From Escherichia coli (lineage in GTDB: Bacteria > Pseudomonadota > Gammaproteobacteria > Enterobacterales > Enterobacteriaceae), in NCBI RefSeq assembly GCF_003334385.1, contig NZ_QOWN01000073.1: a DNA stretch of 7,140 nt; one strand, 5' to 3'. Positions within the stretch are counted from its first letter, which is position 1, and every line of letters starts with the position of its first letter. The notes under the pieces are model-generated. The model was not told where the DNA came from and made no database searches. It worked only from the letters and a program-made list of their open reading frames with translations. The position numbers and the translations under genes were made by a program. This document shows, piece by piece, positions 983 to 5,788 of the stretch.

Positions 983-1067
983 TTCCTGACCGTTATCCGT
1001 TCAACCGCAGCAAAGGCATGATCCGGCCCCCGGAGGCATTTTGCTGCGCGCTAAAGGAGAGAATATT

Positions 1068-1640
1068 ATGCAAAAACTTGAAAACCGGTGTGAGCTGCTG
1101 CTCATCCAGCATCAGAAATGGATGACAAACGTGACGAGGCTTATCGTCGCTCATGGAATGGGGGCTCCGCATCTTCATGGTTATCACCGCCTGACCCTGG
1201 CCCACTTTTTTCTGCCAGAAAAAGGCACCATCATCTCAGTGGCACCACAGGGACTCTATCAGGTCGTCAACCCGGGAACACCACCGTTCATTCCTGCCAT
1301 TCAGGAAGGGTTAATGACCAGCATTCAGACCCATGAAATCATGCTGCTTACACATTTTAATCTGGGCGGCGTTTTACTCAGTGAGCTACATCGTCTGGGT
1401 GAAAACCGGCTGGCAAACAGGCTGAACAGCCTGCTCCGGCGTTTCAACGATCGTGATCTCTACCACACGCTGATATGGCTGTGCTGGTATGATCTGATGT
1501 GTGCTCACTCCATGCAGCCCTGGACTGAAGAGTTAAAGCATAAATCACATGCAGAGCTTGAAAACTGGGCTGTGGCGCGCAAACGGGAAAAGCGCGAGCT
1601 GGAACTGATGATTGACGAGTACCTGTTATACGCCTGTTGA
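1068..1640 (+). CDS. hypothetical protein (190 aa), function unknown; probably co-transcribed with the AlpA-like gene
   Basis: ATG at 1068 preceded by AAGGAGA at 1054-1060 (7-nt spacer); stop TGA 1638-1640. The track ORF starts at a TTG (1041) upstream of the RBS, so the ATG is preferred. Only 85 bp separates it from the alpA stop, same strand. I do not recognise the protein; it may belong to the small proteins often found beside alpA in such islands, but that is unverified. Confidence 0.6.
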   Translation: MQKLENRCELLLIQHQKWMTNVTRLIVAHGMGAPHLHGYHRLTLAHFFLPEKGTIISVAPQGLYQVVNPGTPPFIPAIQEGLMTSIQTHEIMLLTHFNLGGVLLSELHRLGENRLANRLNSLLRRFNDRDLYHTLIWLCWYDLMCAHSMQPWTEELKHKSHAELENWAVARKREKRELELMIDEYLLYAC

Positions 1641-1678
1641 TTCATAACGCTCCCGGGCCTCCGCACACTTACTTTTCC

Positions 1679-1712
1679 TCCGTCACCCTCATGCAGAAGC
1701 GGGGGTGACGGG
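1679..1712. other. GC-rich hairpin between the convergent 190-aa and 496-aa genes (possible bidirectional terminator or processing site)
   Basis: Inverted repeat tccgtcaccc (1679-1688) / gggtgacggg (1703-1712), 9-10 bp stem with ~14-nt loop, in the 120-bp gap between the two convergent stop codons (1640 and 1761). No clear U-tract on either strand, so not a canonical intrinsic terminator. Confidence 0.3.
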
Positions 1713-1760
1713 CATACTGCGATACCACCACTGAATAATCCGTCTCAGCAACAGGGAACA

Positions 1761-3251
1761 TTATAAGCCAAAGGATTGCTCATGCCATCTTATCAGTTTC
1801 TGGCTGTAGCACGCATTCAGTTCAGGCAGCGTGATATTGTTTATTTCGGAAAGCAGGACATAGGTGGTTTTTCCTTCCTGCACGACAGAGAGCCTGAGTT
1901 GAGATGCAAGAATGTTCAGCAGGACGTTCAGCTTTTTCCTGTTCCGGAACCGGCCCGGGCCACACTGGAGAATATAATTTTTCCTGACACGGGGCGGGCA
2001 TTCTCCGCGGCACTCCTCAATGAGCCAGTCGAACAGCTCCTCGGCGTCCTTCTGCTGCAGTTCAGATTCATCAGGTAACGCAAATAATTTTTTATATTCA
2101 TCTGTGTACCACGAACTTATTACGACAGCAGACGTCATGATATCGGCAGAGATTTTCCCTTCACCCTGACTGAAATACTGCAATAACGCAGCAATTCTCG
2201 CAATGTTTTCTGTTTTTTTTGAAACATGCCCCCGAAACTGGCTTAAGGGTCCGGAAGGAGACAAATCCTGCTCCAGAACATTATAGTGATCAATAAATAT
2301 TTTTTGCGCTTCAGGAGAAAAATGCAGACAATAACGTTCATCCTTACTGGATTTTTCAATACTGCCTCTGGCCAGTTCCATTAATCGTTCATGAAATGCC
2401 GTTAATGATCCTCCCGGGGTCACAGCTCCGTTAATAAAGCGTTTCCCCTGCGTGGTGGCAGGTTTACTGATTAGACAACGGGCAAGAAAACCACTGTCCC
2501 TGGCAACAGAACCTTTTCGCTCCATATATCGGTCAAAAAGACCGGGTTGTACCATGAGGGATAATGTCATTCTAGCATTTTCAATCATCTGTTCGGGTTC
2601 ATTCTTTCTGTCCACCGACAATACGGAGCCATCCCACATTTTGTTAATAAAAGGCAGCTCAGACAGGGTATACCCATCAAATATTATACCGGCTTCATCA
2701 GACATGATACCCACTGAACGCCACTGACCACAAAGCTGATCTTTAATTGCTGCTGTCGTGGCATCATTAAAAATGAATTTATATCTTACAGGTTTTTCCC
2801 CTCTGTTTTTCTGAAGCGCTTCCAGTTGTCTGAGCGTTTCTGACTCATCCGCGCCTTTGCGGAGTTCTTTATTCAGTTTTGACAACAATGCTTTTTTCTG
2901 CGCCTTTAAAAGCTCTTCCTTATTTTTCCATATCGTCAGTTCATTTTTGTGTCTGGAATATAACAGCATCTCCTGCTGGTACAGGGGCTCCATTAATAAT
3001 TTGTCCACTGCGGTTTTTCGTTCTCCGGACTCAGCAAGCGTCAGTAAGAAAAGAGAAACCGGCCCCCGCAGTGTATTCAGTCTGCAGACATCAATCAGAT
3101 TCTGGCAGACAAGTGAAACAGCGCCCAGGGCAGATGCTGCCACAAGCCCCAGGGGAGCCTGCGTGATTTGCTGAGCTTCAATAACGGCATCACGAATGAG
3201 TGGAGGCAGCGAGCTCAGGGGAAACTCATCAGGATACTGAAAGTATGGCAT
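1761..3251 (-). CDS. P-loop NTPase-like protein, tentatively DUF3987 / YfjI-like family (~496 aa)
   Basis: Long uninterrupted minus-strand ORF in AT-rich DNA, where long chance ORFs are unlikely. Preferred start is ATG at 3251-3249 with GAGGT 5 nt upstream; the track ORF starts at GTG 3269. Stop TAA (complement of 1761-1763). Protein contains a degenerate Walker A-like LAESGERKT and a Walker B-like GIMSDEAG, plus an N-terminal PLSSLPPLIRDAVIEAQQITQAPLGLVAASALGAVSLVCQ stretch that I recall as typical of DUF3987/YfjI-like proteins. Family assignment is recall-based and unverified. Confidence 0.55.
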   Translation of the reverse strand: MPYFQYPDEFPLSSLPPLIRDAVIEAQQITQAPLGLVAASALGAVSLVCQNLIDVCRLNTLRGPVSLFLLTLAESGERKTAVDKLLMEPLYQQEMLLYSRHKNELTIWKNKEELLKAQKKALLSKLNKELRKGADESETLRQLEALQKNRGEKPVRYKFIFNDATTAAIKDQLCGQWRSVGIMSDEAGIIFDGYTLSELPFINKMWDGSVLSVDRKNEPEQMIENARMTLSLMVQPGLFDRYMERKGSVARDSGFLARCLISKPATTQGKRFINGAVTPGGSLTAFHERLMELARGSIEKSSKDERYCLHFSPEAQKIFIDHYNVLEQDLSPSGPLSQFRGHVSKKTENIARIAALLQYFSQGEGKISADIMTSAVVISSWYTDEYKKLFALPDESELQQKDAEELFDWLIEECRGECPPRVRKNYILQCGPGRFRNRKKLNVLLNILASQLRLSVVQEGKTTYVLLSEINNITLPELNACYSQKLIRWHEQSFGL

Positions 3252-3744
3252 AATGACCTCACAACACACAGAACATAAAGTACCGCAACTATTGCTACTA
3301 ATAGCAAAAATAGCAGCAGAATCAATACAGGATAAAAATTTCTGTCGATTTTCAGATTAAATAATAACCATTCGGTATTTTGTCGCTAAAGAATGTTAGA
3401 ATGAATCTGTGCGTCTACGGGCGCTCTCCGGAACACACATGTTGATTAATTTTCACACAACAACGTACCAGCAAAAAGCATCATCCAGGGTATTGCAGGT
3501 ACGGGTTTCCTGCCGGGAATAAACATAAACAGTTTCCCCGGAGTAACGCTTTCAGAAAACTGCCCTCCTGAAGAAGAATAAAATAAAGAAGATGACAGTT
3601 CCTGCACTGAATGCTGAGTACAATATTCTATGGACAGGATGACATTTTTATAAATAACAAAAACCATTTAATACTGATACATCAATAAAATACTTCCTCC
3701 CTGCTGACACAGATAAAATGCAACATTTTTTCTTCAAATACTTC

Positions 3745-3753
3745 TGTATAATC
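3745..3753 (+). promoter_or_regulatory. candidate sigma70 extended -10 element (TGTATAAT) inside the AT-rich region
   Basis: tgTATAAT at 3745-3752 on the + strand with no good -35. AT-rich DNA produces many such matches, so this is weak. Confidence 0.2.
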
Positions 3754-4084
3754 GCCAGCCAATGATGAGAATGGATTAAAATAACACTTCTTCGACAAAC
3801 ACAAAAACCAGCCTTCATTTTCACATCATCATCCAGTTTTAATTAAACCCTGACGAGCGACAGTATTTCAGTTCAGGAATTAAAAGCCAGCTATTACTCA
3901 GTAAAAACACCACCAACTAATAATATCTCAGCAGATATTTCCTGACCAGGATGACACATTTATTAAAGATTTTTAACAGGACACTTCACATTACTGAACG
4001 CTATTCCGACAGTATCACTACACAAATAAAAAAGGGAACTGGATAAATATTCATGCCGGAAGAATGGTGTAACAAAAGCATTTA

Positions 4085-4097
4085 ATCATTACGTGCG
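4085..4097. repeat. 13-bp direct repeat, copy 1 (atcattacgtgcg)
   Basis: Exact 13-mer atcattacgtgcg at 4085-4097, repeated at 4209-4221; the two copies flank the 30-bp palindrome. Confidence 0.6.
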
Positions 4098-4110
4098 TAT
4101 TCCTCTCTAT

Positions 4111-4140
4111 TCGATCACGGTTTGGCCAAACCGTGATCGA
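4111..4140. repeat. perfect 30-bp palindrome (15+15, no spacer) carrying two GATC sites
   Basis: tcgatcacggtttgg|ccaaaccgtgatcga is exactly self-complementary; GATC at 4113-4116 and 4135-4138; central TGGCCA. Read directly from the sequence. Confidence 0.9.
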
Positions 4141-4208
4141 TTCAGATGCCATTTTGCAAGTACGCATGACCCGGAAGGGAAACACTTAACAACATGGTAT
4201 CAACAGAT

Positions 4209-4221
4209 ATCATTACGTGCG
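4209..4221. repeat. 13-bp direct repeat, copy 2 (atcattacgtgcg)
   Basis: Exact second copy of the 13-mer at 4085-4097. Confidence 0.6.
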
Positions 4222-4527
4222 CACTCTTATAAAAATACACAGCAGAAGCAAGATAACTCTAAACGTAAATTTAATATCTCCCACTGACTGCCCCGACAAT
4301 ATACTGAAAAATACTCACCTCAGTAAACATAAACACACCTGATAATCAGGCTGCAAGATGAATATTTTTCTCCTTTACGGAGTAATCAGCCTGCTGTTTA
4401 ACAATAACCGCGTATTTTCATGGAAGGATATCACCCAATAACGGATAACTCCTGCCCTCCTTCATGTTAATACGCAACATCCCCATCGATTCCAAACAAT
4501 TTCAGACAGATATTATCTCCGTGAATC

Positions 4528-4567
4528 CCCCGCCACCTTTCCGGTGTGCGGGGTTTTGTCTTTTTTC
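4528..4567 (+). terminator. intrinsic (Rho-independent) terminator-like hairpin plus T-tract immediately upstream of the GTPase start codon
   Basis: Stem ccccgccacc (4528-4537) pairs with ggtgtgcgggg (4543-4553) as 10 bp with one bulged T, loop tttcc, followed by ttttgtctttttt (4554-4567). GTPase ATG is at 4583. Confidence 0.5.
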
Positions 4568-4582
4568 ACCGGGAATACATGT

Positions 4583-5455
4583 ATGAATCCGTCTGATGCC
4601 ATTGAGGCAATTGAAAAACCACTTTCTTCCCTGCCTTACTCGCTTTCCCGTCACATCCTGGAACATCTGCGCAAACTCACCAGTCACGAACCCGTGATTG
4701 GCATTATGGGTAAAAGCGGGGCCGGTAAATCCTCACTCTGTAATGCGCTGTTTCAGGGGGAGGTCACCCCGGTCAGTGATGTTCACGCCGGCACCCGGGA
4801 AGTGCGGCGCTTCCGTCTGAGTGGTCACGGTCACAGCATGGTTATCACTGACCTGCCCGGGGTGGGCGAGAGCCGGGACAGGGATGCAGAGTATGAAGCC
4901 CTGTACCGTGACATTCTGCCTGAACTGGACCTGGTGCTGTGGCTGATTAAAGCCGATGACCGGGCCCTGTCTGTGGATGAGTATTTCTGGCGACACATCC
5001 TGCAGTGCGGACATCAGCAGGTGCTGTTTGTGGTGACACAGGCCGACAAAACGGAGCCCTGCCATGAATGGGATATGGCCGGCATTCAGCCCTCTCCCGC
5101 ACAGGCACAGAACATTCGCGAAAAAACGGAGGCGGTATTCCGTCTGTTCCGGCCTGTACATCCGGTTGTGGCCGTATCGGCCCGCACCGGCTGGGAACTG
5201 GATACGCTGGTCAGTGCGCTCATGACAGCGCTTCCCGACCATGCCGCCAGTCCCCTGATGACCCGCCTGCAGGACGAGCTGCGCACGGAATCTGTCCGCG
5301 CTCAGGCCCGTGAGCAGTTTACCGGTGCGGTGGACCGGATATTTGACACAGCGGAGAGCGTCTGTGTTGCCTCTGTTGCACGCACGGTTCTGCGTGCCGT
5401 CCGTGACACAGTGGTCTCTGTTGCCCGCGCGGTATGGAACTGGATCTTCTTCTGA
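4583..5455 (+). CDS. yeeP: YeeP/YkfA/YfjP-family GTPase (50S ribosome-binding GTPase-like, 290 aa), apparently intact
   Basis: Translation MNPSDAIEAIEKPLSSLPYSLSRHILEHLRKLTSHEPVIGIMGKSGAGKSSLCNALFQGEV... contains G1/Walker A GKSGAGKSS, G3 DLPG and G4-like TQADK. I recognise the sequence as the island GTPase found directly upstream of flu. The track ORF 4544..5455 begins inside the upstream hairpin; ATG at 4583 is the more plausible start. Stop TGA 5453-5455. Confidence 0.88.
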   Translation: MNPSDAIEAIEKPLSSLPYSLSRHILEHLRKLTSHEPVIGIMGKSGAGKSSLCNALFQGEVTPVSDVHAGTREVRRFRLSGHGHSMVITDLPGVGESRDRDAEYEALYRDILPELDLVLWLIKADDRALSVDEYFWRHILQCGHQQVLFVVTQADKTEPCHEWDMAGIQPSPAQAQNIREKTEAVFRLFRPVHPVVAVSARTGWELDTLVSALMTALPDHAASPLMTRLQDELRTESVRAQAREQFTGAVDRIFDTAESVCVASVARTVLRAVRDTVVSVARAVWNWIFF

Positions 5456-5539: not shown

Positions 5540-5610
5540 AGCTTGATAATAGAATAAAACGATCGATACCTATTTTATCGATCGTTAATATCGATCGCTA
5601 TACTAATAAT
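5540..5610 (+). promoter_or_regulatory. agn43 (flu) promoter / phase-variation switch: OxyR-binding region with three Dam GATC sites
   Basis: Three CGATCG motifs with GATC at 5561-5564, 5580-5583 and 5593-5596 (spacings 19 and 13 bp), ~200 bp upstream of the flu ATG. This matches the known Dam/OxyR epigenetic switch of agn43. Exact -35/-10 and TSS cannot be fixed from sequence alone; TTGATA at 5543-5548 is a candidate -35. Confidence 0.8.
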
Positions 5611-5760
5611 AACTCCTGTTAGCAACGTGCGCAGATACACACAGACATGAGATTCAGGGAACAACAGAGCCACACGTCAGAAACTTCCGTCAGCCGGACC
5701 TCCGGCACTGTAACCCTTTACCTGCCGGTATCCACATCTGTGGATACCGGCTTTTTTATT
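5567..5760 (+). ncRNA. isrC: agn43 leader RNA / IsrC-like small RNA (prematurely terminated flu 5' leader); boundaries approximate
   Basis: The 3' end is defined by the intrinsic terminator at 5724-5760; the 5' end is assumed to be the flu TSS near the GATC cluster. From memory, an sRNA (IsrC) is annotated in the yeeP-flu intergenic region of E. coli K-12; coordinates here are inferred, not verified. Confidence 0.4.
5724..5760 (+). terminator. intrinsic terminator in the flu leader, ~30 nt upstream of the flu start codon
   Basis: Perfect 12-bp stem gccggtatccac (5724-5735) / gtggataccggc (5740-5751), loop atct, followed by ttttttatt (5752-5760). Confidence 0.75.
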
Positions 5761-5788
5761 CACCCTCACTCTGATTAAGGAAATGCTG

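Follow-up and report, generated by a model that had tools for sequence, protein, structure and literature searches.

An orphan protein family encoded directly behind alpA at the entry to a cargo slot of Enterobacterales genomic islands

In a 7,140-nucleotide stretch of Escherichia coli DNA (contig NZ_QOWN01000073.1 of assembly GCF_003334385.1; here called the window), a gene for an AlpA-like regulator is followed by two convergent genes, orf190 (1068-1640, + strand), which encodes a protein of 190 amino acids (aa), and yfjI (1761-3251, - strand), which encodes a putative helicase of the DUF3987 family. An earlier note on this DNA, made from the sequence alone, had placed both open reading frames (ORFs) at these coordinates, with which the ORF listing and the RefSeq annotation agree, and had taken them for an AlpA-linked cargo module. 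Comparison across genomes did not support the module: the two genes co-occur only in one E. coli lineage, orf190 belongs to the island backbone, and the large gene appears to come from a routine helicase family. The gain is small but tangible. In a widespread island architecture, AlpA is invariably accompanied on its downstream side by a family with an orphan fold; this family is interchangeable with YfjI in position, has a conserved structured element ahead of it, and marks the entry to a cargo slot.

The gene directly behind alpA

In every E. coli locus examined, alpA lies 85 to 95 nt upstream of orf190, or of its 200-aa allele orf200, on the same strand. For other genera, one genome per species was scanned with a 5-sequence alignment, which yielded 28 loci. 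Two mislabeled contigs of metagenome-assembled genomes (MAGs) are among their sources; the others belong to 14 named genera (Lelliottia, Yersinia, Brenneria, Hafnia, Enterobacter, Citrobacter, Serratia, Pectobacterium, Photorhabdus, Kluyvera, Salmonella, Enterobacillus, Mixta, and Providencia). An alpA homolog was directly upstream of the orf190 homolog, on the same strand, in 27 of the 28 loci, and the remaining locus begins at a contig edge. Because it stands directly behind alpA in these 27 loci and in every E. coli locus examined, orf190 is a backbone gene and not cargo, and the gene neighborhoods indicate that its constant partner is AlpA, not YfjI.

A hidden Markov model (HMM) search detected YfjI within 8 kb of an orf190 homolog in none of 29 loci (the 28 above and a metagenomic locus, L005), and an orf190 homolog in none of the three K-12-type loci (K-12 CP4-57 and Dickeya alpA-yfjI-yfjJ). 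In essence, the analysis found what the earlier note had named as counting against a module, a routine helicase and a lack of co-occurrence. The two families are mutually exclusive in the loci sampled, save in the E. coli lineage represented by L001, L009, L010, and L042. The arrangement of segment 700-3500 recurs at a coverage of at least 80% in 796 of 5426 complete E. coli genomes. In the same set, the 190-aa type gave 1067 matches in 1017 genomes and the 200-aa type 6142 matches in 3454 genomes (~7200 matches for both alleles together), compared with 2835 matches in 2291 genomes for the window yfjI, so many orf190 and orf200 copies must stand without yfjI. This is the case for ~21% of orf190-type and most orf200-type copies.

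The 190-aa and 200-aa proteins are 36% identical to each other, in flanks that are 84 to 90% identical in DNA, a pattern that looks like cassette exchange or long-term balancing selection. The differing segment (window 1054-1841, compared with L009:5981-7000 and L010:6096-6891) has its breakpoints at gene borders.

Downstream of orf190, a Rep-related gene of the HUH Gp2/YagK-YfjJ-like type, called from protein clusters, tblastn, and Pfam PF23343 (E=6.6e-5), lies within 3 kb in half of the loci (14 of 28), where it is usually the immediate downstream neighbor. Variable cargo, called with PADLOC and NCBIfam, follows orf190 or the Gp2-like gene in L005 and L015-L037. It includes type I restriction-modification (R-M) systems in several loci, one with PrrC; DndB/DndD with a DGQHR protein; Gabija, ZacABC, Ppl, PDC-M27ABC, and PDC-M54; and a BrxR-GmrSD-type I R-M set. 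Some loci hold non-defense cargo (ars genes, an efflux outer-membrane protein, and O-antigen sugar genes). Judged by gene content, the slot after alpA-orf190, with or without the Gp2-like gene, behaves as a cargo hotspot occupied mostly by defense systems, on an island backbone with further establishment genes (antirestriction, RadC, and DUF932). In the window lineage, the inverted yfjI and an AT-rich spacer occupy the position that cargo holds elsewhere, and orf190 itself appears to fill the slot that the YfjI helicase holds in the sister architecture alpA-yfjI-yfjJ.

Substitution patterns show orf190 to be a genuine gene, since the ratio of nonsynonymous to synonymous substitution rates (dN/dS) is 0.03 to 0.13 between alleles that are 93 to 95% identical in DNA and differ mostly at synonymous sites. 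Read in either of the remaining frames, this alignment gave 1.5 to 2.2. The position of the Shine-Dalgarno sequence favors the ATG at 1068 over an upstream TTG at 1041, which falls inside a hairpin described below. RefSeq labels the product (WP_133301453.1) a hypothetical protein. A word-indexed search found homologs in 11 clusters, and an exhaustive profile search over 1.84 billion representatives returned 125, the majority of them fragments; all that could be placed are from Enterobacterales, save two apparently misbinned MAG contigs. Full-length members have 174 to 200 aa, are 23 to 39% identical, and have in common the motifs G-[VI]-L-[LI]-S-E and L-C-W along with a few further invariant residues. 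The family HMM matches the window allele at E=3.8e-78, scored on the 100%-identical copy in L001.

No match to Orf190 was found in Pfam (queried with the single sequence and with a 16-sequence alignment), NCBIfam, PADLOC, PHROGs, or PDB sequences. A confident AlphaFold2 model built from 16 sequences (predicted local distance difference test [pLDDT], 87.3; predicted template modeling score [pTM], 0.86) shows a long N-terminal helix together with a beta-hairpin, a variable loop, and a helical bundle. Foldseek searches with this model found no match in BFVD and essentially only the family itself in AFDB50, so that the predicted fold has no recognizable relatives outside its own family. Entries of the family in AFDB50 carry the names 'Aec62,' 'uncharacterized,' 'Secretoglobin family protein,' and 'Malate transporter.' The last two are evidently wrong, and 'Aec62' is the sole neutral one; a literature search under that name found nothing relevant. 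A profile-profile comparison found no relationship between Orf190 and YfjI (probability of 0.2%).

A second, divergent member of the family lies a few kilobases downstream of the first at L018:14593-15120 and L032:10917-11627, and a fragment lies at L017:8577-8870. Enterobacterales-type alpA-orf190 DNA is also carried by L014, labeled a Collinsella sp. MAG, and L030, labeled a Bacillota bacterium MAG. The L014 protein is 96% identical to that of the window, and both contigs are probably misbinned or contaminating in public MAGs.

YfjI, the AT-rich spacer, and the layout of the window

Everything else that the earlier note had described in the sequence was borne out: a DUF3987-like large protein that is probably a nucleoside triphosphatase (NTPase), its SGERKT and IMSDEA motifs, a yfjI inverted relative to the co-oriented alpA, yfjI, and yfjJ of K-12, an AT-rich region of 1.3 kb between this gene and a divergent GTPase gene, a 190-aa protein without known match, and a neighborhood of alpA that is often variable and includes anti-phage genes.

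YfjI appears to be an ordinary member of a known family of mobile-element replication helicases and a probable NTPase. Its residues 31-391 cover positions 1-363 of the 364 in Pfam PF13148 (DUF3987; E=2.4e-94), it matches PHROG 2373 'DNA helicase' at E=7.4e-82, and it is 52% identical to K-12 YfjI. Homologs (27 aligned, 48 to 98% identity) came from Escherichia, Dickeya, Yersinia, Hafnia, Enterobacter, Klebsiella, Pectobacterium, and others. Their Walker A motif, AESGERKT at residues 73-80, is invariant from A73 to K79, with S or T at position 80, and is deviant in having R where the canonical G precedes K. In the Walker B region, GIMSDEAG at 181-188, G181, M183, S184, D185, E186, A187, and G188 are invariant. 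Comparison of E. coli alleles gave a dN/dS of 0.21 to 0.31 at a synonymous divergence (dS) of ~0.2, which indicates that yfjI is under purifying selection. An AlphaFold2 model from the 27 homologs was poor as a whole (mean pLDDT of 59); residues 395-467 reached a pLDDT of ~80, with the order of helices and strands H-E-H-H-E-E. PDB sequence and profile searches returned coiled-coil noise only and no solved relative detectable by sequence.

Sensitive profile comparisons have placed DUF3987 among the MCM-related superfamily 6 (SF6) replicative helicases with a winged helix-turn-helix at the C terminus (PMC4889955; also PMC5862659). AgaPH, a PriCT-DUF3987 protein, is an oligomeric, ATP-dependent 5'-3' DNA helicase whose Walker mutants are dead, and is the only DUF3987 protein for which ATP-dependent unwinding is known (PMC11724360). 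In PICMI satellites, organized as int-alpA-prim, prim was named a putative primase by the authors, whose detection model defines the primase by DUF3987 or DUF5906 profiles, and its deletion leads to fewer circular or concatemeric satellite copies (PMC10803314). Fusion or adjacency to a primase (AEP or DnaG) is frequent, though not universal, in the DUF3987 family and was not found for YfjI, whose neighbors are orf190 and noncoding DNA; K-12-type relatives adjoin a Gp2-like HUH protein instead. A literature search under the name yfjI gave only papers with titles and abstracts unrelated to YfjI function.

Database clusters of YfjI are dominated by the 496-aa form (5036 members), next to clusters of 312 aa (1667 members) and 340 aa (328 members). 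Proteins of the island clade end in a tail of ~27 aa (residues ~470-496; 1761-1841) that is missing from the 469-aa K-12-type proteins. The tail comes in two unrelated versions, one in the window and L010 and the other in L009, and neither tracks the orf190 or orf200 allele. Covariation of tail and allele was ruled out by L010, which combines the window-type tail with the other allele.

The 1.3-kb spacer between yfjI and the GTPase gene has a G+C content of 0.34 to 0.41, compared with ~0.5 in its flanks, a marked excess of A over T and of C over G on the + strand, and only three ORFs of at least 50 aa (58 to 73 aa, unannotated). It is collinear and ~87 to 90% identical in the sister islands L009 and L010, and presumably carries the promoters of both divergent genes, yfjI and the GTPase gene. 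A CAGGATGACA pair in it is at chance level. In E. coli islands without yfjI, a co-oriented gene of ~306 to 340 aa (L002:10068-11087, L003:10165-11184, L004:10064-11083, L045:7804-8721, and L047:8045-9067) precedes the GTPase gene, sometimes with an IS1 remnant. It is annotated as hypothetical, once as 'RepB,' and distant relatives adjoin the GTPase gene in other genera; this gene is an alternative to the yfjI-plus-spacer segment. With tblastn, the spacer gave no match to the 339-aa gene that other islands have there, and its origin by decay of such a gene was rejected. A perfect 15+15-bp palindrome, TCGATCACGGTTTGG/CCAAACCGTGATCGA, lies at 4111-4140 within a stretch of ~71 bp (~4094-4164) that is missing from L009 and L010, whose spacers are collinear apart from this, and L010 has a (CAGGGCG)n repeat near that position instead.

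The window belongs to the backbone of a CP4-like genomic island of E. coli that carries Ag43. Its layout (Table 1) was taken from the ORF listing, composition, and the RefSeq annotation of a copy, L001 on the chromosome of E. coli NMBU-W12E19 (99.7% identical), all of which agree. The alpA product also belongs to PHROG excisionase/regulator families, and its gene has a dN/dS of 0.05 to 0.12. The stem-loop between the convergent stop codons has a z-score of -1.23, not significant alone, and lacks a T-run; a terminator scan made no call there. A homolog of the GTPase gene is found near alpA-orf190 in 18 of the 28 loci of other genera. According to the RefSeq annotation, the island is rich in insertion sequence (IS) elements and pseudogenes and has its Gp2-like gene more than 2 kb upstream of alpA, on the opposite strand. 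No integrase lies in the window or, among the 28 loci of other genera, within 8 kb; L003 has an integrase fragment ~3 kb upstream of alpA. No packaging or capsid genes were seen in the annotated flanks, the island is far larger than a satellite, and membership in the PICI, P4, or PICMI class is not established.

Table 1. Features of the window, with coordinates, strand, and basis
Feature	Coordinates	Strand	Basis
alpA-like regulator gene, 68 aa	776-982	+	Pfam PF05930 Phage_AlpA, E=6.3e-9; HTH_17, E=6.7e-7
Hairpin in the alpA-orf190 spacer	1006-1048	+	Minimum free energy (MFE) structure; comparison across genera
Shine-Dalgarno sequence AAGGAG, 8 nt 5' of the orf190 ATG	1054-1059	+	Direct sequence reading
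orf190, 190 aa, ATG 1068 to stop	1068-1640	+	ORF listing; RefSeq WP_133301453.1
GC-rich stem-loop in the 120-bp spacer between convergent stops	1680-1711	undefined	MFE fold of 1641-1760
yfjI, 496 aa, convergent with orf190	1761-3251	-	Pfam PF13148; PHROG 2373; RefSeq 'YfjI family protein'
Walker B IMSDEA, YfjI residues 182-187	2691-2708	-	Alignment of 27 homologs
Deviant Walker A AESGERKT, YfjI residues 73-80	3012-3035	-	Alignment of 27 homologs
AT-rich spacer, no annotated gene	3252-4582	undefined	G+C content; no RefSeq annotation
GTPase gene (YeeP/YkfA/YfjP-like), island backbone	4583-5455	+	NCBIfam Era/MnmE/Der-like GTPase domain matches; RefSeq 'GTPase family protein'
IS102/IsrC small RNA, between the GTPase gene and Ag43	5559-5764		Rfam RF00124, 256 bits
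Start of the Ag43 autotransporter gene	after 5764		

A proposed role behind AlpA and its alternatives

The 85-nt spacer that separates orf190 from alpA folds at minimum free energy as a two-tier stem-loop composed of an A-tract, a GC stem (TCCGG/CCGGA), and a T-tract. Of 22 spacers aligned, 21 were parsed by hand; these represent 13 genera, and all have the same two-tier design. Among the 21, the closing pair of the inner stem is GC in 14, CG in 4, AT in 2, and TG in 1, and the lower stem occurs in five different sequence versions, all able to pair. RNAalifold, run on a MAFFT alignment, recovered the inner stem only, because the lower stem shifts in register from one sequence group to another; for this reason the spacers were parsed by hand, which leans toward structure. 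Since the z-score of the single-sequence fold is only -1.06, support for the hairpin is comparative, and it is suggestive of conservation across genera with compensatory changes. The form of the hairpin, terminator- or attenuator-like, suggests that AlpA-dependent antitermination could bypass a predicted attenuator. The AlpA of Pseudomonas aeruginosa acts as a processive antiterminator, with which RNA polymerase gets past an intrinsic terminator (PMC7969949, PMC9371919), and from this precedent an AlpA-gated read-through into orf190 is proposed here.

On balance, we lean toward reading yfjI, as a helicase, and orf190, as an AlpA-coupled factor, as backbone genes of the island and not as a defense pair. 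Characterized AlpA proteins are either activators of excision genes or processive antiterminators. Upon island induction, AlpA would switch on its own transcription unit, and AlpA-dependent read-through of the terminator-like hairpin would allow Orf190 to be expressed. Orf190 would then act at the stage of excision and replication, most likely as an accessory or adaptor of the Gp2-like initiator, and could substitute for an element-encoded helicase by recruiting that of the host. YfjI would be transcribed separately, from the AT-rich spacer, and as a hexameric helicase would unwind excised island DNA; the window lineage is a hybrid with both orf190 and YfjI. That Orf190 is a replication accessory is the tentative part of this proposal and may well be wrong. 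A bolder version, which we consider unlikely, is that Orf190 represents a new class of AlpA-gated island protein with an unseen fold, expressed only when AlpA-modified RNA polymerase passes the hairpin, and then either recruits a host helicase to the Gp2-like initiator or serves as a switch that couples island induction to expression of the cargo hotspot. If true, the two divergent E. coli alleles would reflect different partner or trigger specificities.

Several observations weigh against this interpretation. A replication-accessory role is proposed from gene order. Only half of the loci have a Gp2-like gene after orf190, and Orf190 has a near-neutral pI, lacks DNA-binding, NTPase, and nuclease signatures, and has no fold relatives. 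The hairpin is unremarkable as a single-sequence fold and lacks a canonical U-tail directly after the GC stem. To our knowledge, antitermination has never been shown for the E. coli AlpA clade. On the side of YfjI, DUF3987 is the sole Pfam domain, a primase domain and an adjoining primase gene are absent, the AlphaFold2 model is too poor to confirm an AAA+ fold, and a search of the spacer for an origin found neither iterons nor tandem repeats. Truncated copies of YfjI are common in databases, so the gene may contribute little here, where it is inverted and uncoupled from alpA in an IS-ridden and probably degenerate island.

Among the alternatives, Orf190 might be an AlpA-dependent gatekeeper or regulator of the cargo slot (a co-regulator, an antitermination cofactor, or a sensor) instead of a replication factor. 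The gene always comes first after alpA and last in the backbone before variable, mostly co-oriented cargo; the conserved hairpin suggests regulated read-through; and strongly diverged alleles between well-conserved flanks are a pattern typical of specificity or sensing components. However, Orf190 has no helix-turn-helix (HTH) or other nucleic-acid-binding signature and no fold relatives, several cargo sets bring their own regulator (e.g., BrxR), cargo is on the opposite strand in many loci (L023, L034, L036), and E. coli keeps orf190 where defense cargo does not follow. We regard this alternative as improbable.

Little likelihood is given to YfjI being a functionless relic, the inverted leftover of a CP4-57-type replication module kept by recent common descent in a degenerate, immobile island. 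Its separation from both alpA and the Gp2-like gene, the lack of a primase and a recognizable origin, the IS elements and pseudogenes around it, the truncated forms in the 312-aa and 340-aa clusters, and the different gene that other islands hold in its segment would all fit, but the dN/dS values at the observed dS point to continued purifying selection, the full-length form is the dominant cluster, and the catalytic motifs are intact.

Less probable again is a self-contained pair of the AlpA-like HTH protein and Orf190, either a toxin-antitoxin (TA) or abortive infection (Abi) system or an anti-defense or establishment gene acting early after transfer. TA/Abi loci commonly consist of a small HTH gene with a conserved, uncharacterized gene after it, the backbone holds other establishment genes, and the AlpA-like protein matches the PADLOC HTH components mad1 and PDC-M06B at E ~1e-3 to 3e-4. 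These matches are weak and reflect generic HTH similarity, however; the HTH protein is a bona fide AlpA-family member, the structured spacer of 85 to 125 nt is unlike tightly coupled TA operons, and Orf190 has no toxin-like motifs or fold matches.

The two-gene module itself, for example, as anti-phage or anti-plasmid cargo beside alpA, is very improbable: the genes are adjacent in 796 E. coli genomes, yfjI sits where other genera hold mostly defense cargo, and the segment that differs between the window and L009 spans orf190 and the last ~27 codons of yfjI, but co-occurrence is confined to one lineage, many E. coli copies of either allele stand without yfjI, L010 shows no covariation of the two genes, their convergence means that they are not co-transcribed, neither Orf190 nor YfjI matches any family of PADLOC-DB 2.0 at E<=0.01, and a replication role is documented for DUF3987.

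For the large gene, the result is deflationary, a known helicase family in an already known class of islands. The interest of orf190 as a fixed backbone gene lies in its context, which is testable: it stands between AlpA and a mostly-defense cargo slot, in the helicase position of a sister architecture, in an island type that is among the commonest accessory elements of E. coli. This context spans the regulation, replication, and mobilization of defense-carrying islands, and alpA-hairpin-orf190 provides a practical landmark for cargo and defense hotspots in Enterobacterales genomes.

Relation to known systems

The P. aeruginosa AlpA system, in which the targets of AlpA are the alpBCDE lysis genes and its action starts from a defined AlpA-binding element (PMC7969949, PMC9371919), has in common with the window an AlpA-family protein and a terminator-like hairpin between the site of action of the regulator and the downstream genes. 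It differs in that no binding element was identified in the window, the hairpin departs from a canonical terminator, and the downstream gene is unrelated. With the DUF3987 helicases (AgaPH, PICMI prim, and phage SF6/MCM-like proteins), YfjI shares the full-length Pfam domain, a variant Walker A, a DE-type Walker B, and an integrative element with alpA, and it may share a winged-helix-like region at the C terminus. Unlike AgaPH, YfjI has no PriCT or primase domain, and no primase gene is adjacent.

Islands of a similar kind occur in Pseudomonas. These tmRNA-linked islands carry intY, alpA, a Gp2-like gene, RadC, and defense cargo, and a jumbo phage transduces them (PMC12595487); defense hotspots in P4-like and PICI satellites are cited there and in PMC10085698. 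The Pseudomonas islands share with the orf190 islands an AlpA, Gp2-like Rep, and RadC/antirestriction backbone and a defense-rich variable slot.

The closest counterpart is CP4-57 of K-12, with a similar element in Dickeya, which likewise combines an AlpA-family regulator, YfjI/DUF3987 (the 52%-identical protein noted above), and a Gp2/YfjJ-like gene; CP4-57 also has the same GTPase (YfjP-like) backbone as the window. In CP4-57, alpA, yfjI, and yfjJ are co-oriented and contiguous, without an orf190 homolog. In the window, orf190 is behind alpA, yfjI is inverted and has its C-terminal extension and its own upstream region, and the island carries its Gp2-like gene upstream of alpA on the other strand. 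In both CP4-57 and Dickeya, variable cargo that includes defense genes follows yfjJ, AbpAB and RnlAB in K-12 and a ResIII helicase with an N6/N4 methyltransferase in Dickeya, so that the order alpA, orf190, Gp2-like gene, and cargo in other genera parallels the order alpA, yfjI, yfjJ, and cargo in CP4-57 and Dickeya.

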